Shown here: positions 9,885-59,272 of the stretch, piece by piece
How positions within the stretch are numbered: position 1 is the first letter of the stretch
Layout: every line of letters starts with the position of its first letter
Origin: an uncultured Granulosicoccaceae bacterium
GTDB taxonomy: Bacteria > Pseudomonadota > Gammaproteobacteria > Granulosicoccales > Granulosicoccaceae
DNA length: 64,000 nt
Reading direction: 5' to 3'
Assembly (NCBI GenBank): GCA_937951345.1
Contig: CALFCF010000004.1
Coordinates: 85,341-149,340 of the forward strand
The notes under the pieces: model-generated
The model's database searches: none
What the model saw: the letters and a program-made list of their open reading frames with translations, nothing else
Told to the model about the DNA's origin: nothing
Translations under genes and position numbers: made by a program

Positions 9885-10048
9885 TGACTGTCCGGATCTT
9901 ATTTTTATTGCTCACAGATCAACCAAAATATGCTGCGTGCAAGCTAGTGTATTGATGAAACAGCAAAGCAACTGTTGAGCCAGTCGAAGTTGACCGACCC
10001 CTGTGAGTGATACGCAAGTAAATGCATCTATCGGCCGTATCTGAACCG

Positions 10049-11990: not shown

Positions 11991-12193
11991 GTGACTCTCT
12001 GGTATAAGTCTGTATTATGGATCGGTATCAGCACGATAGTAGTCGATCACTGCAAAAAAATAATCTCGGCGTTACAATATCAGCGTGAAATAGCCGTGAT
12101 ATTAGCCGTGATACTCAACAGATTAATTTCGGGGCCATACCTGGAGCCTAATCTATTGCTTCAATATACCCGAAGATAGTAACCTCAGGCGTT

Positions 12194-39850: not shown

Positions 39851-41128
39851 CTACTGAGTAAACACAATACTGCTGGGTACGAATTCAGTAGCAACCCGTT
39901 CAAATATGACTTCGTTGGTAGCAGGGTCCAATACAACCAGCCCGGGGTTATCCTCACCACCGACGCCTACCCAGACACGACCGGCTGGCCCAAGTGCCAA
40001 TAAGGTCAGGTCAAGACCCTCCAACCCGGCAACAACACCCTCTTCAATAACACCTGTGGTTGGATTGAATGAACGCAATGTATTGTTAGCAAATGATTCC
40101 GAGCTAATGATGTATCCACGCTCGGCGCTCGCTACAACTGACCCAACGATAAAGGGTCGATTCTCAACATTGATGTCATCAACCAATTCGTCATCATCAA
40201 CCAGCACGTCAAGCGCATAGGTATCAACATCGATAGTCTCAAGTGCACCTTGGTAGGGGTCGCCTGGCAATTCATTAAAACCAACGCCGGTGTTACCGCG
40301 ACCGGTGATCACCACTTCATTAAACTCCGGTACATATTGAATGCCTTCCGGGTTTAACGAGTTAAGAATAATGCCGTTCAAGCCATCAACACCACTACCT
40401 GTGTCAATTTCCGTATCAGTAGCAATATCAAAAACTGCGACGGCACCTGACATCTCGGGTTGAAATAGCGGACCTGTCAGCCGTTGCATCAATACGAATA
40501 ACTGTCCATTGGCAATTACGGCACCTGAAGCCTGTGGAATACCGTCCGGGTCGTAGCCACTGATATCGATCTGGCCAGTGATAAATTCTTCTTCTGTCAT
40601 CGCTGAAGGATTCACGATTAGAACAAACGGCGTGCCGAGTTGTACAACGTAAGCCTTTGACTCATCAACAAACACCATGGCCTGCGGGTTAGGTGAGCCG
40701 CCCTGGGCAACCGAATATTGGTAGATGGGCGTGTTCAGATCGGTTTGTGAAAAACGCGTTATCGACTCAAGGCCAAAACGACCGATCTGATAAACGTCGC
40801 TGCCATCAGTGGCAACACGTATATCGGATGAGGTTGCCGGAAACACCGCGCTGCCTTCCAGACTGATTTGCTCAATTTGACCCGCGTCAAACGAAGGCGT
40901 TCTGGCTGAAATAAATACCGATACACCATCAGGCAGCAACACCATTGCGGTTTCATCGCCATTACCGGGATCTGCAGGGTCACCGGCATTTGCACCGTCA
41001 TCATCATTCGATGAACAACCGACGGCGAACAATACACTTAACACAATTACTAAAGCACGTATCGGCCTGAGGTGGCTCATAAGAGAATCGTACGTTCGTG
41101 ATAACAATAAAATCGGGAGAATTTTCAT
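39851..41128 (-). CDS. Lipoprotein of unknown function, predicted beta-rich (propeller-like), inside the B12 uptake operon
   Basis: 425 aa (or 409 aa from ATG 41080: MSHLRPIRALVIVLSVLFAVGCSS). An Asp/Gly-rich linker is followed by repeated beta-strand-like segments. The long start overlaps the btuB stop by 4 nt. Confidence 0.6.
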   Translation of the reverse strand: MKILPILLLSRTYDSLMSHLRPIRALVIVLSVLFAVGCSSNDDDGANAGDPADPGNGDETAMVLLPDGVSVFISARTPSFDAGQIEQISLEGSAVFPATSSDIRVATDGSDVYQIGRFGLESITRFSQTDLNTPIYQYSVAQGGSPNPQAMVFVDESKAYVVQLGTPFVLIVNPSAMTEEEFITGQIDISGYDPDGIPQASGAVIANGQLFVLMQRLTGPLFQPEMSGAVAVFDIATDTEIDTGSGVDGLNGIILNSLNPEGIQYVPEFNEVVITGRGNTGVGFNELPGDPYQGALETIDVDTYALDVLVDDDELVDDINVENRPFIVGSVVASAERGYIISSESFANNTLRSFNPTTGVIEEGVVAGLEGLDLTLLALGPAGRVWVGVGGEDNPGLVVLDPATNEVIFERVATEFVPSSIVFTQ

Positions 41129-43344: not shown

Positions 43345-43600
43345 ATTCTGTACAGCCTGGCAGGTCTCCTGGCTCATGATGATGACCGGCAAAAACCAGG
43401 TCAATGCATGCAACCCCTTCCCGGATTCGATCGCTTTTCGCAGTTGTTTGGCGAGAAACTTCCGCAAATCCAGTGGCTCTGTACCAACAGGGTTGGCCAG
43501 AGTTTGTTGCACACTCATCATTCACAGTTGCGGGGGCAGCCGGAGCCTTCACTCCGTTCCCTATTAATCCACACTTGGAACCATGCTGTAGCCATAGGAT
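43345..43600 (-). ncRNA. Cobalamin (B12) riboswitch
   Basis: The minus strand reads GGAACGGAGTGAAGGCTCCGGCTGCCCCCGCAACTGTGA (43560..43522), then AGCCACTGG and GGGAAGG. The B12 box AGCCAGGAGACCTGCC lies at 43374..43359, about 230 nt upstream of btuB. Boundaries are approximate. Confidence 0.85.
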
Positions 43601-43793
43601 AGCGCAAATAAACAGCCGCCGCCTAGTACCTAAAGATCGAATAACGTTACGAGGTGATGCCGGTCGCCATCAGAGACAGCCAGGTGCCGTCTGCGGATAT
43701 ATCCAATGTGCGAGTCAATGGTGTGACAGAACGAAACTGCTAACGCGGGTGGTCGCGCGTCTGATCGCCGAGGTAGGTGGCGCCGGGATTGAC

Positions 43794-44549
43794 TTAACCG
43801 GCTTGCTTGTATTCGACTGCGGCCGACGTGAGCGATTCGAGCATGGCAACATCGTGAACGATATAGTTTCCGGGGCGCCAGGTAATCACTTCCTTTCTTT
43901 CGAGGTTTTTCAGTTCGCGGGTGACGGCTTCCCGGTGCGTGCTGATGCGCGAGGCGATGTCAGCATGCGTCGGTACCCTGTCAAATCTGACAGTGTTCGC
44001 AAAGTCGTTGGTGGAGGCATCCCTGGCCATACGCAACAGCTCCAGTCGCACACGGGCGCCCACGGTTTCCGTGCTGAATTCATAGATGCGCTGCATATGC
44101 ACCCGCAAACGTTCTGTCAGATGACGCATCACAACAGCGGCAACAGAGGGGTAGCGGGCGAGAATTTGCAGGAACACCTCTGCTGTAACAGTTGCCGCAA
44201 CAACGGGTGTTCTGGCAATCGTTTCGGTCTGACGCGGTTTGCCGTCGATGGCAGTGAGATGACCACACATCATGCCCGCGGTGTATTCAAAGTACTGAAC
44301 CTGCTTACCGCTCGGAGACAGGTTATGAGCGCAGGCCCTGCCGCTGATGATAAAAAAAACATCCGTGTTGTCTTCCATAACGGAAGTCAACGACTGTCCG
44401 CTGCGAAAGTCCTTCAAAATCATCAGGTCCGCAATGCTACTGCGCTCCTGGTGCGACAGTGAACTGAAAGCATCAAACGCGGAAAGTGTTGTAGCGGTCG
44501 CTTTATTCAAGAAACGTCTCCTAACATCAATACCGACAACACAATCCAT
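43794..44549 (-). CDS. Crp/Fnr-family transcriptional regulator
   Basis: 251 aa. A cNMP-binding-like beta-roll is followed by the C-terminal HTH PTHADIASRISTHREAVTRELKNLE. Confidence 0.75.
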   Translation of the reverse strand: MDCVVGIDVRRRFLNKATATTLSAFDAFSSLSHQERSSIADLMILKDFRSGQSLTSVMEDNTDVFFIISGRACAHNLSPSGKQVQYFEYTAGMMCGHLTAIDGKPRQTETIARTPVVAATVTAEVFLQILARYPSVAAVVMRHLTERLRVHMQRIYEFSTETVGARVRLELLRMARDASTNDFANTVRFDRVPTHADIASRISTHREAVTRELKNLERKEVITWRPGNYIVHDVAMLESLTSAAVEYKQAG

Positions 44550-44959: not shown

Positions 44960-46783
44960 GTGAATGAAAGCCTGACAAAGCCTCGAATTTCAATGGAAAC
45001 CCAGCCTTCAGCGCAGGAAATCAGAGACCACCTGTATGCCGAGCTGATCACATTGGTTTACAAGCAGAATCTGCGTGCCTTTTTGTCAATGCTGATTCCG
45101 ATTTGTCTGATCGCTTTTTTGATACAGCGCTCGGCCAGCACATTACCGGCTTTCTCTTGGGCCGCACTAGCCGTGGTAGTACTGGTTTTCAGACTCTGTG
45201 TTCTCCAGCTCATTTCTAAGAAAATCAGCTGGAACAACGAGCGCAAGCTTCAGATTCTGTGCGCGTTAAGCATCCTGCATAGCATCACCCACGCTTCGTC
45301 GTTGTTGTTCTTCGCAGATATGCCGGCTATTGACCGAACCGTGTTATCGATGATCCTTGTTGCGTTGAGTGCTGGTTCGATCGGTACAAGTGCTGGCTAT
45401 CAGCCACTGTTCTGGTGCTACTCAGCACCAGTGATTATCACCGCATCCCTCTGTTGGTTTATCAACTTCAACAGTCCGGTCGAACAGATGTTCGCTGTTA
45501 TCATCGGATTCGCGATGCTTGCATTGATGCTGACACTCGCAACGCTGAGTCATCATACCTTCCGTTTTTTCTCCTCATCAGTAACTGCGATACAACGCGA
45601 GAAATCATTAACACTGCAGTTAACAGGCGCGTTAGATAAAGCCAAACAGGAAAAACAACGCGCCGAGGCGAGCAATCAGTCCAAGGTCAGATTTCTTGCT
45701 TCCGCGAGTCATGATCTGCGCCAACCGGTGCATGTACTGACACTTTTCTCGGCCGCATTGCAGCAGCATAAATTAGCTCCGGAAGCACGACAGATTTGCG
45801 ACGGCATGGACAATGCCATTGACTCGCTGGCCAGTCAGATTCACTCGCTGCTTGATGTGTCAAAACTCGATGCCGGTTTGGTGAAACCGGAATTAACCCG
45901 AATATCATTATCAGCACTATTGCAAACTCTGGTGCGCGAACATGTACAGGATGCGGAGGCTGCCGGTATAACGCTCAATATTGATCTGGCACCGGATATC
46001 CGCGTGAATACCGATCAGGTGATGCTGACACAAATTATCCGTAATCTTCTGACCAATGCCATCAAATATACCAATACGGGCGAAGTCGAAGTAAATCTGT
46101 CTAAAGAAGGTGGCAATGCGGTACTGGTGATCCGTGATACCGGGATCGGCATCGCTGAATCTGACCTCGAAAAGGTCTTTGAAGAATTTTTTCAGGTGAG
46201 CAACACGCAGCGTGACGCCTCACAGGGACTTGGGCTAGGGTTGGCGATTGTACGACGATTGTGCAGTTTGCTTGATGCGCAAATCGAACTGACATCTTCA
46301 CTCGGTGAAGGAACAACCGTTCGTGTCTGCTATCCACTGGCATCCAAAGACCAGACGCTATCCGACAGTAACACTGCCAGAACTCCAATCTCCCGTGCTT
46401 ATGATCTGAGCGTACATATTCTTGATGATGCTGAGCTTGTCAGAGACAGCACGAAGAAACTTCTGGAACCACTGGGCTGCGAGGTTAGTGTTGCCGGTTC
46501 GACCAGTGAATCACTGGCAGTGACAAGAAATACAGACCCGGATGTATTTCTGATTGATCTGAGGCTTGGCGGTGGAGACTCAGGCATCATGGCCATAGAT
46601 GCACTAAGTGACATATTCCCGCAAGCAACGTTTGTAATGGTCTCCGGAGAGTCGGAACTTGAGCAACTGGGCCTGGAACCCCGTGGAATCAAAGCACTGA
46701 AAAAGCCTCTAAAAATAGACAACCTGGTGGAGCTGTTAGATGAAATCCGGGAACAAAAAACAACAAAGAGTTACATCGCTTGA
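44960..46783 (+). CDS. Hybrid sensor histidine kinase (membrane-embedded sensor, HisKA, HATPase_c, C-terminal REC)
   Basis: 607 aa with a GTG start (an alternative is ATG 44993). There are about 5-6 TM helices with only short loops. The H-box is SHDLRQP, the N/G boxes are NAIKYT and DTGIGI, and the REC domain contains VFLIDLRLGG. Confidence 0.85.
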   Translation: MNESLTKPRISMETQPSAQEIRDHLYAELITLVYKQNLRAFLSMLIPICLIAFLIQRSASTLPAFSWAALAVVVLVFRLCVLQLISKKISWNNERKLQILCALSILHSITHASSLLFFADMPAIDRTVLSMILVALSAGSIGTSAGYQPLFWCYSAPVIITASLCWFINFNSPVEQMFAVIIGFAMLALMLTLATLSHHTFRFFSSSVTAIQREKSLTLQLTGALDKAKQEKQRAEASNQSKVRFLASASHDLRQPVHVLTLFSAALQQHKLAPEARQICDGMDNAIDSLASQIHSLLDVSKLDAGLVKPELTRISLSALLQTLVREHVQDAEAAGITLNIDLAPDIRVNTDQVMLTQIIRNLLTNAIKYTNTGEVEVNLSKEGGNAVLVIRDTGIGIAESDLEKVFEEFFQVSNTQRDASQGLGLGLAIVRRLCSLLDAQIELTSSLGEGTTVRVCYPLASKDQTLSDSNTARTPISRAYDLSVHILDDAELVRDSTKKLLEPLGCEVSVAGSTSESLAVTRNTDPDVFLIDLRLGGGDSGIMAIDALSDIFPQATFVMVSGESELEQLGLEPRGIKALKKPLKIDNLVELLDEIREQKTTKSYIA

Positions 46784-49700
46784 GACTGAATGCTGTACGT
46801 GGATATCGAGCCGCTTCGAGAATTACCTGACTGATCTCGAACGTAACCAGATAGCAGGCAGTGCATCTGAGCCAATTGATTTCCTGATTCTTGGCAGTGG
46901 TTATGGTGCTGCTGTTGCGGCACAAAAACTTGCCCGCAACTACCCTGACAACACCCGCAAAGTCGTGCTTTTCGAGCGCGGTGATGAGTATTTGCCCGGA
47001 AGCTTTCCGGAAGCAATAGCAGATCTTCCGGGGCATCTGCGAATCAGCCCGGTCGCAAAAACTCAGGTTGTCGGCAACAAACACGGCCTGTTCGATATGC
47101 GCATCGGCAATCAATTGAATTGTCTGATTGCCAACGGACTGGGCGGCGGATCATTGATAAATGCCGGTGTAATGCGCAGACCTCCGGCACATGCCTATGA
47201 AACTGAATGGCCCGACGCGATTACGCAAACGGTACTGGAACCGTACCTGACGCGGTCAGAAGTTCTGCTTGGCAGTCATACCCGCGACACAACAACGGAT
47301 TCGAATGTACCGGTGACAGTCAATCTGGACACCGATACCGAATCCCACAGTAAAACACGTTTACTGCAGCAATCCGTCAACAGGCTTCGCGCAGGTAATC
47401 CGAATAGTACATTTGCTTTCGAGCCTGCAGCCATCACTGTAGCGGTCAACGACGGTGAAAATCAATCAGGTGTTGAACTGTCAAAATGCATCAACTGCGC
47501 CGACTGCGCTACGGGATGTAACCACAACGCCAAGAATTCGCTCGATGTAAATCTGCTGGTCGAGGCATACCGCGACGGCGCCACACTGATTACCGGTGTG
47601 ACAGCGTTGAAGCTTGTCAAACACACACTCAATAACAATAAAGATAACAGCACAGGGAACAGCACGAGCGACTCAACGCTTTGGCAGGTTGATTGCCGCT
47701 TTACTGATGACAGGCTCTTCGAGCGGGATACCGGCGGTACCGCAGGCATTCGTTCAGTGTACGCACACAATGTGCTGGTGTGTTGTGGCGCACTTGGCAG
47801 CACCGAGCTGTTGTTGAACTCGCAAACGGATACGCTCGCGTTCTCTCACAAGCTCGGACACAACTTCTCAGGCAATGGTGACTTACTCGCCTTCTATCCG
47901 ACAGATCATTTTAAAAGCAGCGGGATCCGGCCCAACAGTTCTGCCCGGCCACATGTGCCACCTGCAGAGCGCCATATAGGACCAACGATAGGCGGTGTTG
48001 TCAGCACAACAGGCACTAAGGACAGTGGCTTGCAAACACTGTTGATCGAAGAAATGGCCATTCCGGGCACCATCCGCAGCTTCTTCGAACAACCGATTGA
48101 ACTCAACCGGTATATACGCGGTGTACTGACAAACTTTCAGAAAAGGCTGACCGACGACGAGAAGATTCACCCCCTGGCAGTCGACAACACCGGCATCTAT
48201 GCAGCGATAGGCGATGATCAATCCAAAGGTATTGTTTCATTGCCTCAGGAAGGCAATCTCAAGAACCCGCAAGCGCAGCACGACGGCATCGCTCAAGTTA
48301 GCTGGTCTGACTTCAACACAATCGAGAAGCTTTTCAATGAGCAGACCAGACGCATAAACGAACTATTTGCTGAAAAGCCGAATAGACGCGGTGTACTACC
48401 TAATCCTATGTGGCGATTTTTCAAGCGGTTGCAGCGCCTTCTCACTGATGAAAACCGTTTGAACACTGCCTTGAGCGTTCACCCACTGGGTGGATGCCGT
48501 ATGGCAGACTCAGTCAGTCAGGGTGTTACCGACGACAAAGGCAGAGTTTTCAATCCGCAGACCAATCAGGGTGTGCACGACGGGCTGTACGTGCTCGATG
48601 GTGCCATCGTTCCGCGTGCACTAAGTGCAAACCCTGCACTGACAATTACCGCACTGGCACTTCGCGCGACCGAACAACTGGTAGACGAACAACTGTTTAA
48701 TCTCCCCGACCTGCACACATCCGACACTGCAATTGCACCGCAATTGCTTTCAAGTAACCCGTCAATCGATAATAGTATCGCGACACACGGACGACGCAAA
48801 CTGCCGTCGCAACGCCCACGCATAAACAAACACGAAAACCAGCTGGCAACCAATGCGCGAAGCCAGAGTCGCTTCACCCTGCTTGAGCGCCTTGGCGGTG
48901 AGGTTACCCTCAAGATAAAAGGGGTGAAACACACGGTCTTTCTGGAACTCACCATCAGAAGTGCGGCGAAAAACCTGAATGAGTTCAGTGATGCTGACTA
49001 TCGCTCGAATAGTGAACATGAACAGTTTCAGGTATCTGCTAACTGGAGCCACAAAGGGTTTAGTTCAACTTTACGCATTTACCCGTCACGGGCCGCCTAT
49101 GACGATGCAGAGCGTCGCGCAATGGTTCAGCTTCCAATGCTGTCGGACAATGATTTCGGTTCGTCCTGGCAAGGCGACAGGTCTCTTTTTGGCGCACTGA
49201 TATCCAACCAGAGTGCTCGTGAAAAGATCCTCACGGAAGCTGCATTGACAGTAATTTCTTTAGAGGGAAGTGTGCGGGTTTTACACACCAAGCCTTACGC
49301 ATTTTTTCGTCGCGCGAAAACCGGTGTAAAAAATATTATCAAACTCGGGTTCTTAGTTTGGCAAACCCGTAGTTTCCGCCTTGCGCTTGCTACTACACAA
49401 TGGCGATATTTAACCTACCGGCTGCTTCCGGCCCAAGCCATTTACAGAACCGATGCTGATAGCAAGACCCAGGCACTGGTTGATCGCCTGCAACACAGAA
49501 TCCGCAAATCCATTGCTCGCGGTGAGACACTACTGATAGGCGAGAAATGTGTGTACACCGATAGGCCAGAAACCATCATTTCTCAACTTAGTGAAGTCAA
49601 CATCAGGAAATTTCCGTTTTTTTCCAGGCTCGAATCCGAGCGACTGGTGCTCGACCCCAAACTCTTTGCAGCAACAGCGCATCCACTGATCGCGATCGAA

Positions 49701-51614
49701 AAACAAACCAACCTGATTGACAGTTTCACTGACCTTGCAAGCTTTTCGCTGTTTTGTTTTAAGCGGCTACTGCCCATTCACGCCCCGGCCATCGCAGCCG
49801 CAGCAGCTGATATCTTTGCCACTTCCGCTGCGACACAAACAGACGAACTCACCGCTCCAGCAGATGTTAAGCGTACACCGGGTGAAATTCCGGGAGCCAA
49901 TCGCACACTGTATTTACTGGAAGTTCCGAAAACGATTTCAAGTCCAGACAGCAACAGCAAGACAAGCGGGCGACTCAATATTCACCCATCGGATGATACG
50001 TCACCGGTTTTTATCGGCCTGACCCGGTATCAAGGCAAACACCATGAACAGGTGAACACAACACATCAACGAGCACCCATACTGTTGATCCACGGCTATA
50101 TCGCCGGTGGCAATACCTTTACTCACCATTCACTCGAGTACCCGCTGGCACAAACGCTAATCGAAGACGGTTACGATGTGTGGGTGCTGGACATGCGCGA
50201 CAGTTGCCGCTTCTACGCACAGGCGCAGAAGATCTGGACGTTCGAACAAGTTGGGCTGATCGATATCAGAGTAGCAATTGATTTTGTTTGCAAAACCAGT
50301 AGGCAGCCGGCAATTGAGGTATTGGCCCACTGTATCGGTTCTGCGAAATTTTCATTAGCGATGCTGTCAGACAAAGCATCAATTCAAGTATTCGAGTATG
50401 AAGCCAAGCAAGTGCGCGACTGGTCGGTACACGACTGGGAACCCCGGCCACGCGCACCGGCTGGACATGCAGATTCCACGCAGTACAGCGAATCCACATG
50501 GCAAAGATACACGATTGATGCAACGCATCCTGCCGAACGTATCGCCAAAGCAGTTCTGTCACAAGTGACACCCATACTCAGCGTTAGTGACGGTAACCTG
50601 CTGCGTGCTTATCTACTCGACAACTGGCTGAAATTTACCCCGTTCTCGGCTTATCAACTGCAGTACAGGCGCGATAACAGCGGATTCGCACTCATGGCTG
50701 AGAAACTGTTGGATGCCGGTCTGCAAATGATCCCCTACGCCTATGACAAATCAGACAAACGTCTGGATGCAACAGAATTCAAAGAGGCGATGCGCATACG
50801 GCGCCGAATGGATTTGTTGTACAACAAAGTGTTTGAACTTAAACATACCAGTGACAAAACACTTCATCACCTGCATGAGTTATTCGGTCCGGTTAATCTG
50901 CACACACTCCTGCAAGGCGTTCATTTTGCCAGAGAGAGTCAGGTTACCGGTCATCTCGGTGAAGGCGTCTCTTATCGCAACAATCGTATCCTGGAGCGAA
51001 TGGCCGAACAATGGACCTTCCCGACACTGTGCTTCATTGGTGCTGATAACAATGTCTTCCACGCGGATGGCTTTCAGGCATTTAAACAGGCAGTAGATGT
51101 CAATGAACTCACCAACTTCCACGTCATGACACCGATAAATGACTACGGACATCAGGATGCTTTCACTGGCACAAAAGCGCACACTGAAATTCATCCGTTA
51201 ATACTGGCATGGCTTGATAATCCCATCAGTGTGCCGGGCGACACCCAACATCGCAAAAATTTAAACAAAAAAGCACAGCGGAAATTCATCTCTGTCACGC
51301 AACAGGTCAGCCATAACATACAGCCAATAGCAGACGGTCTGGCTCTGACCTTACGTAAGAGCGATTTGCCTCGTGGCGTGTCCACTGTACGCCTGGCAAA
51401 CCGGGCACATCCACAACCAGCGGTTTTTGACTACCGTTACCTGCAGCAATCGACCTATACCGATAACTTCGCCGACATCTCACATGACAAGGCTTCTGTG
51501 TACTTTCTTATCAAACGTAACAAAGCCAACGATTTGTTTACAGATAGCGGGCGAATCGCTGCAATAGATATACAGGTTGATGCCTTACATTTTTCATCCC
51601 CAGTGACCGAATAG
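46740..51614 (+). CDS. 1624-aa multidomain protein: ChoD-like GMC (FAD) oxidoreductase, then ~450 aa of unknown region, then an alpha/beta-hydrolase domain
   Basis: The FAD motif is DFLILGSGYGAAVAA (aa 47-61), followed by GLGGGSLINAG. KCINCADCATGCNHNAKNSLDVN is similar to mycobacterial ChoD. The GMC C-terminal motif is HPLGGCRM...LYVLDGAIVP (aa ~581-640). The hydrolase part has PILLIHGYIAGGNTF...GYDVWVLDMRDS, the elbow AHCIGS (Cys-1198) and YGHQDAF (His-1471). It is a single uninterrupted ORF. Confidence 0.8.
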   Translation: MKSGNKKQQRVTSLETECCTWISSRFENYLTDLERNQIAGSASEPIDFLILGSGYGAAVAAQKLARNYPDNTRKVVLFERGDEYLPGSFPEAIADLPGHLRISPVAKTQVVGNKHGLFDMRIGNQLNCLIANGLGGGSLINAGVMRRPPAHAYETEWPDAITQTVLEPYLTRSEVLLGSHTRDTTTDSNVPVTVNLDTDTESHSKTRLLQQSVNRLRAGNPNSTFAFEPAAITVAVNDGENQSGVELSKCINCADCATGCNHNAKNSLDVNLLVEAYRDGATLITGVTALKLVKHTLNNNKDNSTGNSTSDSTLWQVDCRFTDDRLFERDTGGTAGIRSVYAHNVLVCCGALGSTELLLNSQTDTLAFSHKLGHNFSGNGDLLAFYPTDHFKSSGIRPNSSARPHVPPAERHIGPTIGGVVSTTGTKDSGLQTLLIEEMAIPGTIRSFFEQPIELNRYIRGVLTNFQKRLTDDEKIHPLAVDNTGIYAAIGDDQSKGIVSLPQEGNLKNPQAQHDGIAQVSWSDFNTIEKLFNEQTRRINELFAEKPNRRGVLPNPMWRFFKRLQRLLTDENRLNTALSVHPLGGCRMADSVSQGVTDDKGRVFNPQTNQGVHDGLYVLDGAIVPRALSANPALTITALALRATEQLVDEQLFNLPDLHTSDTAIAPQLLSSNPSIDNSIATHGRRKLPSQRPRINKHENQLATNARSQSRFTLLERLGGEVTLKIKGVKHTVFLELTIRSAAKNLNEFSDADYRSNSEHEQFQVSANWSHKGFSSTLRIYPSRAAYDDAERRAMVQLPMLSDNDFGSSWQGDRSLFGALISNQSAREKILTEAALTVISLEGSVRVLHTKPYAFFRRAKTGVKNIIKLGFLVWQTRSFRLALATTQWRYLTYRLLPAQAIYRTDADSKTQALVDRLQHRIRKSIARGETLLIGEKCVYTDRPETIISQLSEVNIRKFPFFSRLESERLVLDPKLFAATAHPLIAIEKQTNLIDSFTDLASFSLFCFKRLLPIHAPAIAAAAADIFATSAATQTDELTAPADVKRTPGEIPGANRTLYLLEVPKTISSPDSNSKTSGRLNIHPSDDTSPVFIGLTRYQGKHHEQVNTTHQRAPILLIHGYIAGGNTFTHHSLEYPLAQTLIEDGYDVWVLDMRDSCRFYAQAQKIWTFEQVGLIDIRVAIDFVCKTSRQPAIEVLAHCIGSAKFSLAMLSDKASIQVFEYEAKQVRDWSVHDWEPRPRAPAGHADSTQYSESTWQRYTIDATHPAERIAKAVLSQVTPILSVSDGNLLRAYLLDNWLKFTPFSAYQLQYRRDNSGFALMAEKLLDAGLQMIPYAYDKSDKRLDATEFKEAMRIRRRMDLLYNKVFELKHTSDKTLHHLHELFGPVNLHTLLQGVHFARESQVTGHLGEGVSYRNNRILERMAEQWTFPTLCFIGADNNVFHADGFQAFKQAVDVNELTNFHVMTPINDYGHQDAFTGTKAHTEIHPLILAWLDNPISVPGDTQHRKNLNKKAQRKFISVTQQVSHNIQPIADGLALTLRKSDLPRGVSTVRLANRAHPQPAVFDYRYLQQSTYTDNFADISHDKASVYFLIKRNKANDLFTDSGRIAAIDIQVDALHFSSPVTE

Positions 51615-51622: not shown

Positions 51623-51870
51623 CTAGCCTGCTCTATTCATGAAGGCGAAAACAGTGACAATGAAAACTAAGCAATTTCCAGTTAGAAAAGCAGTTTTAGC
51701 GTCGCTGCGGGTATTCGCACACTGTTTTCTATTCACCACCAGAGCCAGTCTGCCGTCGCAGCTCACTCGATTGAGCTCAACCCGTAGATTTCTACGAATT
51801 TCGCTCAATCGAGCGACCAGCTTAGGTAGCCAGACTCTGGTGGCGAACCCTTCATGAATAGAGCAGGCTA
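51623..51870. repeat. Inverted-repeat element (22-23-nt terminal arms around a ~200-nt structured core), MITE/REP-like
   Basis: The left arm ctagcctgctctattcatgaagg (51623..51645) and the right arm ccttcatgaatagagcaggcta (51849..51870) are reverse complements. The core holds nested inverted repeats (caccagag..cagtct/agactctggtg and tcgattgagc/gctcaatcga). It starts 9 nt after the giant ORF stop. Confidence 0.7.
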
Positions 51871-51944: not shown

Positions 51945-53141
51945 ATGGAAACTACAAAAGAGCAGACCCTCGCAAACGAACAAACGGTCGCCATCGGCAG
52001 CTGCCAGTATCCGGGTAGTTTTTTTGATAACAACTACGCCTACCAAGCCTGGCGACAGCTGACTGATGACAACGGCGATTTGCGCGCTCAAACGATGATT
52101 CTGCTGGGCGATCAGATCTACGCAGATGCGACTGCCGGCCTGTTCGAAACGGAAAATCCGATAGCACAGTATCTTTATCCGTATGAACAGCTCCACACGC
52201 GGCTTCGTAACGTTAAGACACCACCGGGCAAATATTCACTGAACGACGATCACGAGATGATTGAAAACTGGGAACCGGTGTCACCACATAGCGCAAGTGC
52301 CGAGAAAGTGGAAATCGCTAGAAACTACGGCCTCGATTGCTACCGCGATCACGGGTATTGCAAGGGATACCCACAAAACTACAATCAAGCCCCCTACTTT
52401 CGGGCGCTTGATTATCTGCCGTTCCCAATATTTCTCTGTGACACACGGACAGAACGAGAACATCGGTCAACCGGTAATTTTCTCGATGCAAAAATGTTCA
52501 GTGAACAACAGATGCAGGCACTTAAAGAATGGCTGATAACACACAGACAAGACGAGCTTAAGATAATCACGTCACCCGCTGCCCTACTGCCACGTTCAGC
52601 TGCCGCCAACAGACCTCAGCCTTCTGATGATCAACAGGTTCACGGACTGCCATTTACATCGAGTGTGCTGCGCAGTGATGCATGGGACGGCTATCCGGCA
52701 ACTTTCAGCGAATTACTAACGTTTATCGCAAAGGAGTCCTTGACCGGCATCGTATTCGTATCCGGTGATTTCCATTTCTCTTCCGTCAGCAGTTTGAACA
52801 TGATGCATGGCGGGAATCAAACCACTGTGCACTTGATTCACTGCTCCGGGTTATATTCACCCTTTCCCTTTGCCAACGCCACACCCCCGGATTTGCTATT
52901 AAACGATGAGTTCTGGTTACCGGCATCCATGCAGGGAAGTCTGTTAGACGTCTGTCAGCACTCAACGCAAATCAGTGACTGTATTCACTGCCAGGTAGCA
53001 ACTGAAGTGGTTGAGGCCGGAGATGGATTTTGTTTTATCAAAGTATCTGCAGACGGGTTTCTGGAGATTGAATTCTCACGTCATCACAAGCCGGAGAATC
53101 CGATATACCGTAAGCCGTTACAAGAAAAACAGTTTGTGTGA
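51945..53141 (+). CDS. PhoD-like metallophosphoesterase with no signal or Tat peptide
   Basis: 398 aa. VAIGSCQYPG, MILLGDQIYADATAG, NDDHEMIENW and FVSGDFHFSSV match the PhoD-like/calcineurin-like metal-site pattern. Confidence 0.65.
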   Translation: METTKEQTLANEQTVAIGSCQYPGSFFDNNYAYQAWRQLTDDNGDLRAQTMILLGDQIYADATAGLFETENPIAQYLYPYEQLHTRLRNVKTPPGKYSLNDDHEMIENWEPVSPHSASAEKVEIARNYGLDCYRDHGYCKGYPQNYNQAPYFRALDYLPFPIFLCDTRTEREHRSTGNFLDAKMFSEQQMQALKEWLITHRQDELKIITSPAALLPRSAAANRPQPSDDQQVHGLPFTSSVLRSDAWDGYPATFSELLTFIAKESLTGIVFVSGDFHFSSVSSLNMMHGGNQTTVHLIHCSGLYSPFPFANATPPDLLLNDEFWLPASMQGSLLDVCQHSTQISDCIHCQVATEVVEAGDGFCFIKVSADGFLEIEFSRHHKPENPIYRKPLQEKQFV

Positions 53142-53145: not shown

Positions 53146-53190
53146 CTAGCCTGCTCTATTCATGAAGGGTTCGTGAATAGAGCAGGCTAG
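53146..53190. repeat. Compact hairpin copy of the 51623/51870 repeat family, a possible bidirectional terminator
   Basis: CTAGCCTGCTCTATTCA-tgaagggttcg-TGAATAGAGCAGGCTAG forms a 17-bp perfect stem. It starts 5 nt after the PhoD-like stop and lies between convergent genes. Confidence 0.65.
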
Positions 53191-53299
53191 GTTTAACGCG
53201 TTTCAGTTAGGGCGCGTTACGGTGTTTTTGCCACAAAGTTTCAAAGGAAATTGGCAGAAACTAAGTACAAAGCTATTGAAGTACAACGTGAGTAAAACA

Positions 53300-53971
53300 C
53301 TACTGCACGTTTGTATCATCCGTACCTTCCAAACCAGCTAACATCAATAACGCTTCTGTTCTGCTTTTTACCCCCAGCGTCTTGTAAGCTGTAGACAAAT
53401 GCGCCTTCACTGTGCCTTCAGAAATATTCAACTCGTTGGCTATTACCCGATTGGTCGCACCCCGAACAGCCAATAAAGTAGTTTCACGCTGCCGCAACGA
53501 TAAACTTGCCAGTGCTGTCTCTATGCTGTCGCTGATGGAGACACAGGTAAACCCGCGTAACTCCTCTGTTGCAGGATCCTGTTCAACTAGCGCTTCAGGG
53601 GGAAGGTATATGCCACCGGCCAAAACAAGTCTTAACGCCTGGACTAATAACTCTTTGGATGAATGTTTCGGAATGAAACCGGATGCACCGCCATCGAGCA
53701 CACTGCGGATAAGATCCGGGCGATCATCCCCGGATAACACGACAACTGCGGCGGTTGGAAAACTATCCTGGATTCTTGCAATTGCAGCCGAACCACCAAT
53801 GCAAGGCAGATGGTAGTCGAGCAATACGAGATCCACGTTCCCGGCACCCAGATCATCGAGCCTGTCGACACTACCCGTATCGAAAAACTCGACATCGCTT
53901 GCGAGCTCCTTCAGCAGTAAACGTAGCCCTGATCTGAAGAGCTCGTGATCGTCCACAATGAGTACTTTCAC
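53300..53971 (-). CDS. NarL/FixJ (LuxR-type HTH) response regulator
   Basis: 223 aa. The REC domain is MKVLIVDDHELFRSGL...LVLLDYHLP. The C-terminal HTH is RETTLLAVRGATNRVIANELNISEGTVKAHLSTAYKTLGV. Confidence 0.85.
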   Translation of the reverse strand: MKVLIVDDHELFRSGLRLLLKELASDVEFFDTGSVDRLDDLGAGNVDLVLLDYHLPCIGGSAAIARIQDSFPTAAVVVLSGDDRPDLIRSVLDGGASGFIPKHSSKELLVQALRLVLAGGIYLPPEALVEQDPATEELRGFTCVSISDSIETALASLSLRQRETTLLAVRGATNRVIANELNISEGTVKAHLSTAYKTLGVKSRTEALLMLAGLEGTDDTNVQ

Positions 53972-54398: not shown

Positions 54399-55259
54399 TT
54401 AACCCATTTTCGATTTAAGTCCATAGTGCGATCGCCGGTCGCCAAGAAAACCATACTGACGACGCGCGTCATCAATTTCCTGTAGCGCCAGCGTGAAACT
54501 TAAAAGCTGCTCATCACAATCGTGGAAGACATAAGGCGGGCGTTGTCCGTCAACCCACGGATAACTGATGATAGATGCACCGTAGTTCGAACCCGCCCGG
54601 TTAAGCCCCAAAAAGAACAACTGATTTTCAACGGAGCGTGTGATCACAAAGGGGTGCCAGCTGTAGAACGACTGATCGCGGAAGTACGCACTGCACTGGA
54701 GTATCAAATCAACCTGATGTGTTGTTGCCAGCTCACGAACAATTTCCGGGGTTCTGATATCGACACAGATAATCGGAGCAACTGTAAAACCGCCAACACT
54801 AAAAACCAACAGCCCGTCGCCTGGGACAAAAAAGTTCTTCTCGGCAGATGCACCAAATTGAGCAAGATGTATTTTGTCGTAATAACCGATCAGATTTCCG
54901 TCGGGTCCGACAACCGCCGAAGTGATGGTGTAACCTTGATCTGTAACTCGCGGGAATCCGAATACGATATGCGTTGAATATTCCTTCGCAACTTCACACC
55001 ACGTATTAAACGAAGGACCATCTAAAGGTTCAGCCAGCGTATCAAGAAGATCAAAAGCCTCACCGGAATATTCAATACTCGAGAGTTCAGGTAGCACAAC
55101 CAGATCAGCCGATTGCTTAGAGAGACTTTCGCGAACGCGCCGTGCACTAGACAGTAAGTGCTGATCACGCTCAACCTCCGTTCGCGTTTCGGGTATCGCA
55201 AGCTGCGCTGCCAGCAAGGTGAGTGTATGTGTTGTCGTCATGTGTCCTCCGGGACCCAC
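54399..55259 (-). CDS. Carbon-nitrogen hydrolase (nitrilase superfamily)
   Basis: The E-K-C triad context is VLPELSS, YDKIHL and APIICVDIRTPE. The likely start is ATG 55241 (MTTTHTLTLLAAQLAI). Confidence 0.75.
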   Translation of the reverse strand: MGPGGHMTTTHTLTLLAAQLAIPETRTEVERDQHLLSSARRVRESLSKQSADLVVLPELSSIEYSGEAFDLLDTLAEPLDGPSFNTWCEVAKEYSTHIVFGFPRVTDQGYTITSAVVGPDGNLIGYYDKIHLAQFGASAEKNFFVPGDGLLVFSVGGFTVAPIICVDIRTPEIVRELATTHQVDLILQCSAYFRDQSFYSWHPFVITRSVENQLFFLGLNRAGSNYGASIISYPWVDGQRPPYVFHDCDEQLLSFTLALQEIDDARRQYGFLGDRRSHYGLKSKMG

Positions 55260-55287
55260 AGGAGGGGCACGATTTACGAAGCACTTT

Positions 55288-55321
55288 CGTTGTATTGCGA
55301 CTTACGTTGTATTGCGACTTA
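55288..55321. repeat. Perfect 17-bp tandem duplication (cgttgtattgcgactta x2)
   Basis: Read directly from the sequence. It lies in the divergent promoter region between the nitrilase-family gene and hyuA. Confidence 0.9.
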
Positions 55322-55481
55322 CGATCAAGGGTTACGCCGATAGTTGCTGTGACGCAGTTGCACAGGGTAACTGGTTTCTCGCAGTTTAATCGAAAACACG
55401 CGATAATCCAGCCGATCAAAGACAAACTCCATCGATTCGCACCGTTAATCGCGAAAAAAGCAACGGAAACAGAATACTCAG

Positions 55482-57569
55482 ATGTCCGAAAATCAGATCC
55501 GACTTGGCGTGGATATCGGTGGCACATTCACCGACGTCGTGCTTGAAACACCTGACAACAGCTATTCGACAAAAGTGCTGACAACCTATGCGGCACCTGA
55601 AGATGCCATCCTGACAGGAATCGACAAGGTTTGTAGTCTTGGCGGCGTCAACCCGGCTTCTGTCGAGCAGATGATTCACGGAACCACACTTGCCACCAAT
55701 GCGTTGATTGAACGACGCGGCGCAAAAACCGCTCTTGTGACGACCAGCGGTTTTCGCGATGTAATGGAAATGCGTACGGAAAGTCGCTTTGAGCAGTACG
55801 ATCTGAATTTGACTTTGCCAACACCGTTACTACCTCGCAACCGTCGCTACGTGCTACCCGAACGCATGGACGCACGCGGCGAGGTGTTGATCCCTCTTGA
55901 GCGTCCGGCAATTGAACAACTTGCCGATGAGCTGGCCGCGGCAAACTACGAAAGTATCGCCATCGGTTTGCTGCATTCCTATGTCAACGATGCCCACGAA
56001 AAAATGATCAGAGATGTATTCACTGAGCGCATGCCAGAAGTCATGCTTTCATTGTCGAGTGAAGTATCACCGCAGATGCGCGAATACGAACGATTCAATA
56101 CGACTGTTGCTAACGCCTATATTAAACCTTTGATGAAAAGTTACCTGAGTCGGCTCGAAGGCCGGTTGCGGGAATCCGGTATTACCTGCCCGGTATTTTT
56201 GATGCATTCCGGCGGTGGCATTATCAGTCTCGAAAACGCTGCTGAATTTCCGGTTCGACTGGTTGAATCAGGCCCTGCAGGTGGTGCGGTCTTCGCAGCA
56301 GATGTTGCTGCGCGTCACGGCCTTGAAAACGTGCTGTCGTTTGATATGGGTGGTACAACTGCAAAAATCTGCCTGATTAAAAATCAAACACCAAAAACCG
56401 CGCGCGTTTTTGAGGTGGCACGAACCTATCGTTTCAAAAAAGGGTCGGGTATGCCCATTTCGATCCCGGTTATCGATATGGTGGAAATCGGCGCCGGCGG
56501 CGGATCACTTGCCCACGTTGATGCGATGAATCAGATTCGTGTGGGTCCGGAAAGCGCAGGCTCTGAACCGGGTCCGGCGTGCTACGGCCGCGGTGGTAAA
56601 CATGCGGCAGTCACTGATGCCGACCTGACACTCGGCAAACTCGATCCGGATAATTTCGCCGGTGGCACGATTCCATTAAACAAAGCAGACTCTGAAGCCG
56701 CACTGCAATGCGATATCGGTTCACAACTGGGTATGGACGCCAACGAATCCGCCTGGGGTGTGGCAGAAGTTGTTGATGAAAACATGGCCAATGCCGCGCG
56801 AGTACATGCGGTCGAAAACGGTGAAGACTTAAGCCAGTACACAATGATTGCATTCGGCGGTGCCGCGCCCTTACACGCTGCTCGTCTTTGTCAGAAACTC
56901 GGTATCGAGCGCTGCCTAGTGCCACAGGGAGCCGGTGTCGGCTCAGCCATCGGTTTTCTGCGTGCACCGTTCAGCTTCGAATCAAACCGTACTGTTTTCA
57001 TGAAGCTCACAGCATTCGAACCGGAAAGGATCAAACAGTTGTTCACGGAAATGGAGGAAGAAGCAACAACATTTGTGCGCGCCTGCGATGCGACTGCGGA
57101 TATACTGAAAGACCACAAAATCTACATGCGCTATGCCGGTCAAGGCTGGGAAATTCCTGTACCACTGACAACCGACGAGGCACGTACGCCGAACGTTGAC
57201 ACTTACACTGAACGTTTTGAAACAACCTACCGGACACTGTTCGGGCGTTCGGTAGAAGGCATGGAAATCGAAGTCACTGTCTGGTCGGTCAACGCCTATA
57301 CAACCCCTCTGGCATCCGAAAAGTTGCTGCAACAACCTGCCCCTGAAAATGTGCAAACGCAAACTACCCGAGCGTTGTTTGATTCTGCCACCGGCAAGTC
57401 GATAGACGCGGCCGTTCACTCGCGGACTGCACTTGCTGCCGGCAATCAAGTCGCAGGGCCTGCGATCATCACTGAAGACGAGACAACCGTTATTGTCCCG
57501 TCAGATCGTTTTGCACGGGTACTCACAGACAACACGGTCGAGGTAGCAGTTAAAGGAGAATCCAGATGA
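55482..57569 (+). CDS. hyuA: Hydantoinase/oxoprolinase A subunit (HyuA family)
   Basis: 695 aa. The N-terminus is IRLGVDIGGTFTDVVL, with later FDMGGTTAKICLI, both typical of Hydantoinase_A. Confidence 0.85.
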   Translation: MSENQIRLGVDIGGTFTDVVLETPDNSYSTKVLTTYAAPEDAILTGIDKVCSLGGVNPASVEQMIHGTTLATNALIERRGAKTALVTTSGFRDVMEMRTESRFEQYDLNLTLPTPLLPRNRRYVLPERMDARGEVLIPLERPAIEQLADELAAANYESIAIGLLHSYVNDAHEKMIRDVFTERMPEVMLSLSSEVSPQMREYERFNTTVANAYIKPLMKSYLSRLEGRLRESGITCPVFLMHSGGGIISLENAAEFPVRLVESGPAGGAVFAADVAARHGLENVLSFDMGGTTAKICLIKNQTPKTARVFEVARTYRFKKGSGMPISIPVIDMVEIGAGGGSLAHVDAMNQIRVGPESAGSEPGPACYGRGGKHAAVTDADLTLGKLDPDNFAGGTIPLNKADSEAALQCDIGSQLGMDANESAWGVAEVVDENMANAARVHAVENGEDLSQYTMIAFGGAAPLHAARLCQKLGIERCLVPQGAGVGSAIGFLRAPFSFESNRTVFMKLTAFEPERIKQLFTEMEEEATTFVRACDATADILKDHKIYMRYAGQGWEIPVPLTTDEARTPNVDTYTERFETTYRTLFGRSVEGMEIEVTVWSVNAYTTPLASEKLLQQPAPENVQTQTTRALFDSATGKSIDAAVHSRTALAAGNQVAGPAIITEDETTVIVPSDRFARVLTDNTVEVAVKGESR

Positions 57570-59272
57570 ACCAGATTAGTCAGGTCGCCTATCAAGTGAT
57601 GTGGAATCGACTGATATCAGTCGTCGAAGAGCAGGCTCAGGCGTTGGTTCGTACTGCGTTTTCAACGTCAGTGCGTGAGGCGGGGGATTTATCTGCCGGC
57701 GTGTACAACGATCAGGGTGAGATGCTGGCACAAGCAGTAACCGGCACACCCGGGCATGTCAATGCAATGGCCGATGCGGTTGGTCATTTTATTCGGCGTA
57801 TTGGCCGCGACAATATGTATGAAGGTGATGTGTACATCACTAATGACCCTTGGGAAGGTACTGGTCACCTACACGATATCACTGTCGTTACACCGTCGTT
57901 TTACCAAAGCCAGCTCATTGGTTTCTTTGCGTGCACTGCACACATTGTTGATATCGGCGGTCGGGGTTTTGGTGCAGACGCCAACTCTGTCTATGAAGAA
58001 GGTTTATATATCCCGATCATGAAATTTGCCGAACGCGGCAGCGTTGATCAGACACTGATCAAACTGATACGCGGCAACGTGCGTGAACCGGATCAATTAG
58101 TGGGTGATGTTTATGCGCTGGAAACCTGCAACGAAGTGGGACATCGTCGCCTGATTGATATGTTATCTGAATTCAACCTCAGCAACCTCGACGGCATTTC
58201 GCGTTTTATTATGGAAAACTCGCGCGCTGCAACACTGGCACGCATCAATGCACTGACGCCGGGTACTGCCGACGGCCATATGCGTATTGACGGTTACACA
58301 AATCCGATTGATCTGCACGTAAAATTAAGCATCGAGCAGGACCGTATGCACTGCGACTGGGAAGGAACGTCAGGGCTCGACAAAAAAGGGATCAACGTAC
58401 CGCTGGTGTACACCAAGGCTTACACCTGTTACGCACTGAAGTGTGCCATTGCTCCAGATATTCCAAACAATGCTGCATCGCTGGCACCGTTTGAAATCAC
58501 AGCACCGGAAAACAGCATTGTCAATGCAGTACACCCGGCACCGGTTGCGTTACGTCATGTCATCGGTCACATGGTGCCCGACACCGTATACGACGCGCTC
58601 GACAAGCTGCTTCCGAATACAGTACCGGCAGAAGGCGCCGGTAGTCTGTGTAACTTCCAGGTGTCGTTGCGTCCGCGCTCGGACGAAGATGCACCGGAGG
58701 ATGCAGTCAGATCAGAAGTCCTGACCTTCAACTCCGGTGGCTCGGGTGCACGCCCGACGCTCGACGGTATGAATGCAACCGCCTTTCCGTCAGGCGTCAT
58801 GACCATGCCGGTTGAAGCCACGGAACAAGTGGGACCGGTTATTATCTGGCGCAAGGAATTACGCCAGGATAGCGGTGGTGGCGGACAGTACCGTGGCGGA
58901 CTCGGACAGCATATGGAAGTGGGTGCCCGCGAGGGACACGAATTCGATATTCAAGCGATGTTTGATCGTGTTGACCATCCTGCACGCGGTCGACGTGGCG
59001 GACACAACGGTGCGCCAACAACTATCGCACAAGATGATGGAACACCGATGCAAGGCAAGGGTAAACAGTTTGTTCCTCACGGACGCAAAGTGATTATGGC
59101 TTTTCCGGGAGGTGCCGGTTACGGTGAGCCTGCGTCAAGAAGTAAACAGCAAGTGTGCAGTGATCTTGCCAACGGATACATCTCAAAACAAATGGCAATT
59201 GACACGTATGGCTTATCGTCGGCTGAGGCCAGCGACGTATTGCAACGTTCTAAAAATGGTGACTCTATCTAG
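57566..59272 (+). CDS. hyuB: Hydantoinase/oxoprolinase B subunit (HyuB family)
   Basis: 568 aa. Hydantoinase_B-type segments are VMWNRLISVVEEQAQALVRTAFSTSVREAGDLSAGV and NDPWEGTGHLHD. It overlaps hyuA by 4 nt. Confidence 0.85.
   Translation: MNQISQVAYQVMWNRLISVVEEQAQALVRTAFSTSVREAGDLSAGVYNDQGEMLAQAVTGTPGHVNAMADAVGHFIRRIGRDNMYEGDVYITNDPWEGTGHLHDITVVTPSFYQSQLIGFFACTAHIVDIGGRGFGADANSVYEEGLYIPIMKFAERGSVDQTLIKLIRGNVREPDQLVGDVYALETCNEVGHRRLIDMLSEFNLSNLDGISRFIMENSRAATLARINALTPGTADGHMRIDGYTNPIDLHVKLSIEQDRMHCDWEGTSGLDKKGINVPLVYTKAYTCYALKCAIAPDIPNNAASLAPFEITAPENSIVNAVHPAPVALRHVIGHMVPDTVYDALDKLLPNTVPAEGAGSLCNFQVSLRPRSDEDAPEDAVRSEVLTFNSGGSGARPTLDGMNATAFPSGVMTMPVEATEQVGPVIIWRKELRQDSGGGGQYRGGLGQHMEVGAREGHEFDIQAMFDRVDHPARGRRGGHNGAPTTIAQDDGTPMQGKGKQFVPHGRKVIMAFPGGAGYGEPASRSKQQVCSDLANGYISKQMAIDTYGLSSAEASDVLQRSKNGDSI

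Follow-up and report, generated by a model that had tools for sequence, protein, structure and literature searches.

A ChoD-like flavoprotein joined to an acid-lipase-like hydrolase with a cysteine in the predicted nucleophile elbow in an uncultured Granulosicoccaceae bacterium

The window analyzed here, a stretch of 64,000 nucleotides from an uncultured Granulosicoccaceae bacterium (contig CALFCF010000004.1, positions 85,341 to 149,340), harbored an open reading frame (ORF) of 1624 residues in which a ChoD-like GMC flavoprotein was joined, through a middle domain, to an alpha/beta hydrolase with a cysteine in its predicted nucleophile elbow. The ORF is a real, intact gene and belongs to a sizeable, widespread, uncharacterized proteobacterial family, and, as family alignments indicate, the cysteine at the predicted nucleophile position is a hallmark of this family and not a one-off. 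Judged by similarity, the predicted protein comes closest to an acid lipase linked to a dehydrogenase of the ChoD type, although it lacks the Ser and Asp of the former and falls short of the cholesterol-oxidase equivalog, and the predicted functional unit extends beyond the ORF into the PhoD gene that follows it. Tentatively, the product is proposed to be a cytoplasmic multi-enzyme that, together with the PhoD gene product, would process a lipid-like substrate that is hydroxylated, esterified, and probably also phosphorylated, through an acyl-thioester intermediate; within this proposal the architecture and the role of the cysteine are near-certain, whereas the substrate class is uncertain. 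The features of the ORF are as follows.

46740..51614, + strand: the multidomain ORF, with an ATG start, a TAG stop at 51612-51614, 1624 aa and no internal stop
46872..48674, + strand: ChoD-like GMC flavin adenine dinucleotide (FAD) oxidoreductase domain, aa ~45-645
47487..47519, + strand: candidate iron-sulfur (Fe-S) ligands Cys-250/253/256/260 (CxxCxxCxxxC), within the GMC domain
48852..49814, + strand: middle domain, aa ~705-1025, long antiparallel strands packed with helices
50052..51209, + strand: acid-lipase-like alpha/beta-hydrolase domain with a helical cap, aa ~1105-1490
50331..50333, + strand: Cys-1198 (codon TGT), the predicted nucleophile, in the elbow A-H-C-I-G-S
51048..51050, + strand: Asn-1437, at the position of the gastric lipase catalytic Asp324, with Asp-1436 just before it
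51150..51152, + strand: His-1471 (GHQD), the predicted catalytic histidine
51210..51611, + strand: C-terminal tail, aa ~1491-1624, beta-rich, of low to moderate model confidence

An earlier account of this DNA, made from its letters alone (the sequence-only reading), had described an uninterrupted ORF and quoted a series of motifs, all of which were recovered where it had placed them: GSGYG (first residue aa 52), GGGSLINAG (aa 135), CINCADCATGCNHNAKNS (aa 250), HPLGGCRM (aa 581), DGAIVP (aa 620), LLIHGYIAGGNTF (aa 1115), GYDVWVLDMRDS (aa 1144), AHCIGS (aa 1196), and YGHQDAF (aa 1469). Its division of the protein into three parts held for the GMC, middle, and hydrolase parts, but proved too simple, as a C-terminal tail of ~130 residues follows and the unit continues into the next gene.

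For the hydrolase, an AlphaFold2 model of aa 1085-1624 was built on 42 homologues, and its core reached a predicted local distance difference test score (pLDDT) of >90, with residues 1226-1249 forming a low-confidence insertion that is missing from most relatives. In the model, Cys-1198 was the sole residue between a strand (1192-1197) and a helix (1199-1209), an arrangement that is a nucleophile elbow by definition (PMC11878206), and His-1471 followed the last core strand; an oxyanion HG dipeptide lies at 1118-1119. The modeled position of Cys-1198 in the elbow, as the sequence-only reading had proposed, was thereby confirmed, also by its pairing with the gastric lipase elbow described below. 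Foldseek matched the model to many alpha/beta hydrolases at probability 1.0, as expected of a member of that fold, and the modeled helical cap followed strand beta6, the position that it has in lysosomal acid lipase (PMC11878206). The top Foldseek ranks against the PDB went to 6V7N, human lysosomal acid lipase/cholesteryl ester hydrolase (E 3.8e-12), followed by the dog and human gastric lipases 1K8Q and 1HLG (to 5e-11), with a polyhydroxyalkanoate (PHA) synthase only at rank 28. No dienelactone hydrolase occurred in the top 50 matches, and no Pfam DLH match was obtained at E up to 1, so that membership of the dienelactone hydrolases was rejected.

At the sequence level, Pfam Abhydrolase_1 remained below threshold (22.8 bits against a cut-off of 25.8), and a search of PDB sequences returned gastric lipase at 5e-4 for aa 1106-1203. 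A hydrolase profile, made from 32 hydrolase-only sequences of the genome loci and searched against PDB sequences, matched gastric lipase at E 6.5e-16 in two aligned stretches covering the HG, elbow, acid, and His blocks, compared with E 1e-3 for PhaC structures. No gaps interrupted the alignment of the catalytic blocks (lipase residues in the published numbering): vaHCmG paired with VGHSQG, placing Cys-1198 opposite the gastric lipase nucleophile Ser153; hGaeNglfD paired with NGGKDLLAD, placing Asn-1437 opposite Asp324; and GHqD paired with NHLD, placing His-1471 opposite His353. Among the relatives aligned, Cys-1198 was invariant (119/119), as was His-1471 (118/118), and residue 1437 was Asn in 114 of 119 and Ser in the other 5. 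The preceding residue 1436 was Asp or Glu in 98 of the 119 members of the close family, and varied freely in distant relatives. On the strength of the gap-free profile alignment and this residue conservation, an apparent triad of Cys-1198, His-1471, and Asn-1437 is the best reading of the site.

The mammalian acid lipases (1HLG and 1K8Q, gastric; 6V7N, lysosomal) were the best matches in both structure (E 4e-12 to 5e-11) and profile, sharing with the domain HG-x-x-AS-x-T, G-x-DVW, the elbow xHxxG, H-x-D, and the cap after beta6. Their homology to the domain is clear, but the nucleophile serine of their G-H-S-Q-G box is replaced by the Cys of A-H-C-I-G, and the Asp after beta7 by Asn-1437. In addition, the domain described here is embedded in a 1624-aa protein, is cytoplasmic (no signal peptide was found on the ORF), and is only ~11-13 % identical to them. 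The sequence-only reading had named the domain gastric-lipase/PhaC-type and had called a Cys nucleophile typical of PHA synthases and dienelactone hydrolases and not of lipases; the gastric (acid) lipase half of that description was upheld, together with the Cys in the elbow, whereas the scaffold gave only weak similarity to PhaC and none to dienelactone hydrolase in Pfam. PhaC, PhaZ, and dienelactone hydrolase do share the elbow Cys and its His partner with the domain, and in a 2024 survey of alpha/beta hydrolases the only enzymes given with a cysteine triad are dienelactone hydrolases, PHA depolymerases (PhaZ), and PHA synthases, all of them Cys-Asp-His (PMC11878206). This survey lends some weight to an acyl-transferase or polyester enzyme of the PhaC or intracellular PhaZ type, in which Cys-1198 would carry a (hydroxy)acyl chain and the GMC domain would oxidize its 3-hydroxyl end, as do the weak matches to class III PhaC (TIGR01836, E 0.004), to PhaC structures in the profile search, and at Foldseek rank 28. 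Many host genera of the family are PHA producers as well. However, acid lipases matched ~13 orders of magnitude better than PhaC, the TIGR01836 score was 16.1 bits where 365 is the cut-off, the G-x-C-x-G box of PhaC is replaced by A-H-C-I-G, the Asp retained by both PhaC and PhaZ is Asn here, and the conserved neighbours included no pha genes. Membership of the PHA synthases was rejected on the NCBIfam score, the Foldseek rank, and the profile E value, and an enzyme of this type is considered unlikely.

Under the multi-enzyme proposal, the neighbouring genes are part of the picture, and their features are listed here.

44960..46783, + strand: hybrid histidine kinase, 607 aa (Pfam HisKA, HATPase_c, REC)
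51624..51870, no strand assigned: nested palindromic element, 247 bp, between the 1624-aa ORF and the PhoD gene
51945..53141, + strand: PhoD-like metallophosphoesterase, 398 aa (Pfam PF09423 PhoD, 71.5 bits against 27)
53146..53229, + strand: hairpin of repeat arms (53146-53189), then a terminator-like stem with a T-run (53194-53229)
53300..53971, - strand: NarL/LuxR-type response regulator (Pfam REC + GerE)

In most relatives, PhoD forms the C-terminal quarter of a ~1900-aa protein, whereas it is a separate gene here, onto which residues ~1520-1944 of the fused homologues mapped (tblastn); adjacent separate PhoD genes were also found in several other lineages. The PhoD-like ORF carries the blocks SCQYP, GDQIY, DDHE, WDGYP, and GDFH, and DDHE, WDGYP, and GDFH align with Bacillus subtilis PhoD (2YEQ), which has the same DDHE, WDGYP, and GDxH blocks, placing the ORF, with its additional SCQ motif, in the PhoD family. 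B. subtilis PhoD is exported by a twin-arginine translocation (Tat) signal. In contrast, the N-terminus of the ORF described here (METTKEQTLANEQTVAIGSCQYPG) showed no twin-arginine, no hydrophobic stretch, and no signal peptide, so that its product is predicted to be cytoplasmic and not exported by Tat; it also differs from B. subtilis PhoD in having no detectable PhoD N-terminal domain and in being fused in most relatives.

The C-terminal tail of the 1624-aa ORF is lineage-specific, is shared with the relative P0002, and showed no similarity to the hydrolase-PhoD linker of the fused homologues. Beyond it lies the 247-bp element, which is bounded by perfect 22-bp inverted repeats (TAGCCTGCTCTATTCATGAAGG), encloses a hairpin whose arms are 57 nt long, and has an RNA fold energy z-score of -10.9; it matched no Rfam family. 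Its repeat arms, without the 203-nt insert, recur as the hairpin at 53146-53189 directly after the PhoD stop. The element was absent from the syntenic 66 % identical relative (L001), where the PhoD gene begins 82 nt downstream, and its insertion accounts for the gap of 330 nt in the window. Moreover, a 1.3-kb Logan contig of the PhoD gene broke within the repeat arms on both sides, suggesting that the element is a multi-copy repeat resembling a miniature inverted-repeat transposable element (MITE) or a repetitive extragenic palindrome (REP). The stem and T-run at 53194-53229 probably end the transcription unit.

Upstream, the hybrid histidine kinase gene runs 44 nt into the start of the 1624-aa ORF. 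The first ~200 residues of the kinase form a hydrophobic region that can be read as about six membrane helices; this sensor domain matched no NCBIfam family and had only one relative in the database. The best NCBIfam models were an NahK/ErcS-type hybrid kinase for the kinase (260 bits, below the cut-off of 400) and ErdR for the regulator (114 bits, below the cut-off of 390). Among 47 close-family loci, an orthologous kinase lay directly upstream on the same strand in 22, with a gap of -46 to +63 nt in 18 of these, and such a kinase was adjacent on either strand in ~38, while a NarL-type regulator was present in 19. The recurrent overlaps and short gaps suggest that kinase and enzyme may be translationally coupled. 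In Rhizobium and Ensifer loci (L034, L037, L039, L040; ~700-4700, minus strand), no hybrid kinase was found, and the ~1900-aa member was divergent from a ~1340-aa adenylate/guanylate-cyclase + AAA_16 protein; 7TM-GGDEF proteins occurred near some other family loci. Matches to a Pho box upstream of the operon were not above chance frequency and none fell in the promoter region, and a sigma-70 promoter scan gave results below the shuffle expectation.

The gene order also invites comparison with autoinducer synthase/receptor pairs such as CqsA/CqsS and LuxM/LuxN, which have an analogous layout. By this account the enzyme would make or destroy a hydrophobic oxidized lipid signal that is sensed by the co-transcribed hybrid kinase, which would suit the close kinase-enzyme spacing in many genomes, the purely membrane-embedded sensor region, and the replacement of the kinase by other signaling proteins in Rhizobium, Ensifer, and elsewhere. 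Enzyme genes beside a two-component system are, however, mostly its regulated targets and not signal synthases; the kinase core and regulator are similar to the ErcS/ErdR type, a system that governs the catabolism of alcohol and acetate, and neither NCBIfam nor the single database relative linked the sensor domain to a known autoinducer receptor. A signal synthase or signal-destroying enzyme is accordingly held to be quite unlikely, and under the multi-enzyme proposal the kinase would instead respond to the substrate.

The flavoprotein half of the protein was identified as a GMC oxidoreductase by both Pfam domains, PF00732 GMC_oxred_N at aa 114-376 (53.1 bits against a threshold of 23) and PF05199 GMC_oxred_C at aa 530-640 (52.6 bits against 24.6), and a search of PDB sequences returned cholesterol oxidases at ~1e-11 for the N-terminal part of the ORF, in agreement with the ChoD-like GMC flavoprotein fused to an alpha/beta hydrolase that the sequence-only reading had described. 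The FAD fingerprint (G52/G54/G56, with the acidic E79 at the end of beta2) was conserved in 120/120 relatives, as was the predicted catalytic pair of His-581 (48480-48482) and Asn-631 (48630-48632), which, in an alignment with Streptomyces cholesterol oxidase, stand opposite its HPLGG His and its VNP Asn. Among the ChoD-type/class I cholesterol oxidases, Streptomyces ChoA (1B4V/4U2L) shares the GMC N- and C-domains, GxGxxG, and the catalytic HPLGG His and NP Asn residue for residue, but has no counterpart to the invariant CxxCxxCxxxC insert.

Cys-250, Cys-253, Cys-256, and Cys-260 were invariant in 120/120 relatives and have ferredoxin-type spacing; CxxCGDCxxGC was also kept in the distant ~1150-aa relatives, and no cysteines occurred at this position in the solved cholesterol oxidases aligned. 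Mycobacterium tuberculosis ChoD presumably has a similar Cys motif. The nearest documented parallel is the alpha subunit of the Burkholderia cepacia FAD-dependent glucose dehydrogenase (FAD-GDH), a direct-electron-transfer GMC dehydrogenase. In it, a loop rich in cysteines (Cys212/218/222), placed much like Cys250-260 of the present protein, carries a 3Fe-4S cluster that relays electrons from FAD (PMC6719666). The spacing differs, CC-x4-C-x3-C there against C-x2-C-x2-C-x3-C here, where a cluster is a prediction; a PDB search gave no sequence match to this FAD-GDH, and neither a hitchhiker nor a cytochrome subunit was found in the window. A further likeness is the cytochrome c gene beside the ~1150-aa relatives. 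The invariant four-Cys motif suggests a putative Fe-S site, and we infer that the GMC domain may be an Fe-S-containing dehydrogenase.

With cholesterol oxidase and lysosomal acid lipase/cholesteryl ester hydrolase as the best named matches, and relatives labeled 'cholesterol oxidase' in UniRef and JGI, an enzyme of sterol catabolism that genuinely combines a cholesteryl-ester hydrolase with a cholesterol oxidase has to be weighed. The best NCBIfam model was indeed the cholesterol-oxidase equivalog NF058674, but at only 113.4 bits against a cut-off of 850, and identity with the solved cholesterol oxidases was limited to the FAD and catalytic blocks. Furthermore, the protein is predicted to be cytoplasmic, no steroid-degradation genes were found among the window ORFs scanned, and the PhoD module, the four-Cys motif, and the Ser-to-Cys change would all be left unexplained. 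A role in sterol catabolism is therefore regarded as improbable. Still less probable is that the protein serves the kinase as an accessory sensor based on redox or thiol chemistry, with FAD, Fe-S, and a reactive Cys reporting the redox state: the conserved kinase adjacency and the three redox-sensitive features in one protein would accord with it, but the modules examined have kept their full catalytic sets (oxyanion HG, GMC His/Asn, PhoD motifs), as selection on catalysis would produce, and the protein is very large for a sensor.

Between the GMC and hydrolase domains, the sequence-only reading had seen no recognizable motif in aa 650-1100, and no family emerged for this region from any of the searches made. 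Pfam and NCBIfam returned none for aa 650-1100 of the query; in 49 family members, no Pfam match to the middle domain was above E 0.004 and none was common to more than three members; and a profile of the domain matched nothing among PDB sequences. An AlphaFold2 model of aa 606-1130 had a core (aa ~705-1025) mostly at pLDDT >90, for which Foldseek gave no significant match against the PDB (best E 0.2, template modeling score <0.15) or against the BFVD viral models (best E 0.065). A single-sequence phmmer search against 1.84 billion cluster representatives yielded four matches, all close relatives or fragments, so that family size cannot be estimated from phmmer. The C-terminal half of the domain did, however, show homology to the stretch of ~275 residues between the two domains of the ~1150-aa relatives (hhalign 95 %, E 3e-8, 161 columns), which, together with the well-defined fold, indicates that the middle domain is an old, family-wide element and not a linker.

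Many Proteobacteria of soil, fresh water, and the sea have relatives of the protein, and a genome scan that yielded 80 loci placed them in Burkholderiales, Nevskiales, Cellvibrionales, Salinisphaerales, Rhizobiaceae, and others; the window's own lineage was sparse, with one 66 % relative and all others at <=32 % identity. A simpler form of ~1150 aa, without a signal peptide, occurs in Pseudomonas, Acidobacteriota, Actinomycetota, Alphaproteobacteria, and Persicobacter and keeps HC[FWY]G beside its CxxCGDCxxGC; the four cysteines and HCxG persist in the Pseudomonas, Acidobacteriota, Actinomycetota, and Persicobacter relatives at a hydrolase identity of only 21-28 %. At several of its loci (among L056, L061, L062, L068-L071, L077, and L080; ~9000-12300), the next genes encode a ~620-aa RoxA-like cytochrome c and, two genes downstream of the ~1150-aa protein, a ~415-aa calcineurin-like metallophosphoesterase, indicating that the link between flavoprotein-hydrolase and phosphoesterase recurs with a different phosphoesterase family. 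No description of the function of this three-gene set was found. Two further conserved neighbour families were observed, neither with a Pfam match in the one member scanned of each: one of ~560-760 aa after the PhoD-less ~1350-aa forms (L004, L008, L010, L028; downstream, minus strand), and one of ~570-730 aa before the alphaproteobacterial ~1150-aa form (L047, L051, L065, L072; upstream), with an extra ~600-aa GMC paralogue between the two in three of these four loci. In databases, relatives are named 'cholesterol oxidase', 'alpha/beta fold hydrolase', or 'alkaline phosphatase D family protein'; any one such label refers to just one domain of the fusion.

The integrity of the gene was supported by several lines of evidence. 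A database search with the ORF protein returned an identical protein (P0001) and 873 relatives, and the 1624-aa P0121, 99.94 % identical to the ORF product, came from a separate read-level assembly. Fused homologues aligned with the window in tblastn as single, colinear high-scoring segment pairs of ~1500 residues, and the ORF was colinear with >100 homologues, which places its architecture far beyond chance; the hydrolase elbow occurred together with the GMC domain in at least 119 of the 120 top relatives. In addition, the 66 % identical relative has its stop at the same position, the G+C content was flat throughout the ORF region (host DNA, ~50 %), and a Shine-Dalgarno-like GGTGGAG precedes the ATG within the kinase coding region. 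The check for frameshifts and chimerism suggested by the sequence-only reading was negative, homologue colinearity and the independent assembly both agreeing with the ORF, and none of the three findings it had named as able to overturn it was made: a Cys outside the elbow, a chimeric ORF, or an architecture with an assigned function. Despite the detached PhoD part and the repeat element in the gap, the chance of an assembly chimera or decaying pseudogene is practically negligible, an origin refuted by full-length colinearity with both fused and split homologues, the same 1624-aa product in an independent assembly, the shared stop position and separate PhoD gene of the 66 % relative, the hydrolase-PhoD splits in several other lineages, and the intact state of every catalytic residue.

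The tentative multi-enzyme proposal comprises several reactions, whose order may differ from that given here. The lipase-like domain would attack an acyl ester through Cys-1198 to give an acyl-thioester, with His-1471 as the base and Asn-1437 orienting it, and the acyl-thioester would then be hydrolyzed or handed to an acceptor. The PhoD module would take off a phosphate or phosphodiester group, and the GMC domain would oxidize the freed hydroxyl to a carbonyl, the FAD electrons leaving via an Fe-S cluster held by the four cysteines; such an exit would class the enzyme with the dehydrogenases and not with the oxidases. The middle domain may bind or channel the hydrophobic substrate, and that lipid may be the cue on which kinase and regulator activate the operon. 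The lipid character of the substrate is suggested only, by analogy with the nearest relatives of two domains (for the hydrolase, lysosomal and gastric lipases, which act on neutral lipid esters; for the GMC domain, enzymes acting on sterols) and by the membrane-embedded sensor. That acyl-transfer or thioester chemistry may be coupled to an FAD oxidation in one polypeptide, as hinted in the sequence-only reading, is a reasonable inference.

A number of observations weigh against this proposal. With a register shift of one residue, the acid position would be taken by Asp/Glu-1436 in the majority of close relatives; Fer4 Pfam matches at the four-Cys site remained below threshold (E 0.04-0.11); and the likeness of the middle domain to lipid-binding half-barrels was weak and not significant in Foldseek. 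About four members (L004, L008, L010, L028) are PhoD-less, so that PhoD is not obligatory, and no lipid-metabolism genes were conserved around the family. Furthermore, the source names of the relatives are generic labels, and no characterized member of the domain combination was found in the literature. A bolder variant, improbable on present evidence, is that the Cys-His-Asn site might have no hydrolase function and act instead as a covalent tether (thioester or thiohemiacetal) for a lipid acyl or aldehyde during oxidation by the adjoining Fe-S flavoprotein, the product being a membrane-soluble signal read by the co-translated hybrid kinase; if true, tether and signal reading would amount to new enzyme chemistry and a new lipid-based signaling module in one operon.

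Other features of the window were recorded. A pel exopolysaccharide operon lies at 3195-11068 (- strand), in which the ORF at 4667-6286 was a PelF equivalog (648 bits). At 54399-59272, a carbon-nitrogen hydrolase gene (- strand) stands beside a hydantoinase/oxoprolinase A + B pair (+ strand), possibly a cluster for the catabolism of cyclic amides with no relation to the 1624-aa ORF. A TonB receptor with a FecCD transporter was detected by Pfam. The ORFs at 39851-41128 (- strand, 425 aa) and 43404-44462 (+ strand, 352 aa) matched no Pfam or NCBIfam family; the former adjoins the TonB-dependent receptor, a position that is conserved in L001.

Taken as a whole, the protein is a worthwhile biochemical target for its altered catalytic site and candidate Fe-S site, its middle domain without a known fold, and its conserved sensor-kinase partner, with no new principle shown. 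To the cysteine classes of alpha/beta hydrolases, the family would add a fourth, derived from acid lipases and with Asn at the acid position, in which the predicted Cys-His-Asn site is always joined to a flavoprotein with an Fe-S motif and to a domain without a known fold. Knowing the substrate would correct the single-domain annotation of the relatives, and it could reveal a route of lipid or phospholipid turnover or signaling under a dedicated membrane sensor kinase.

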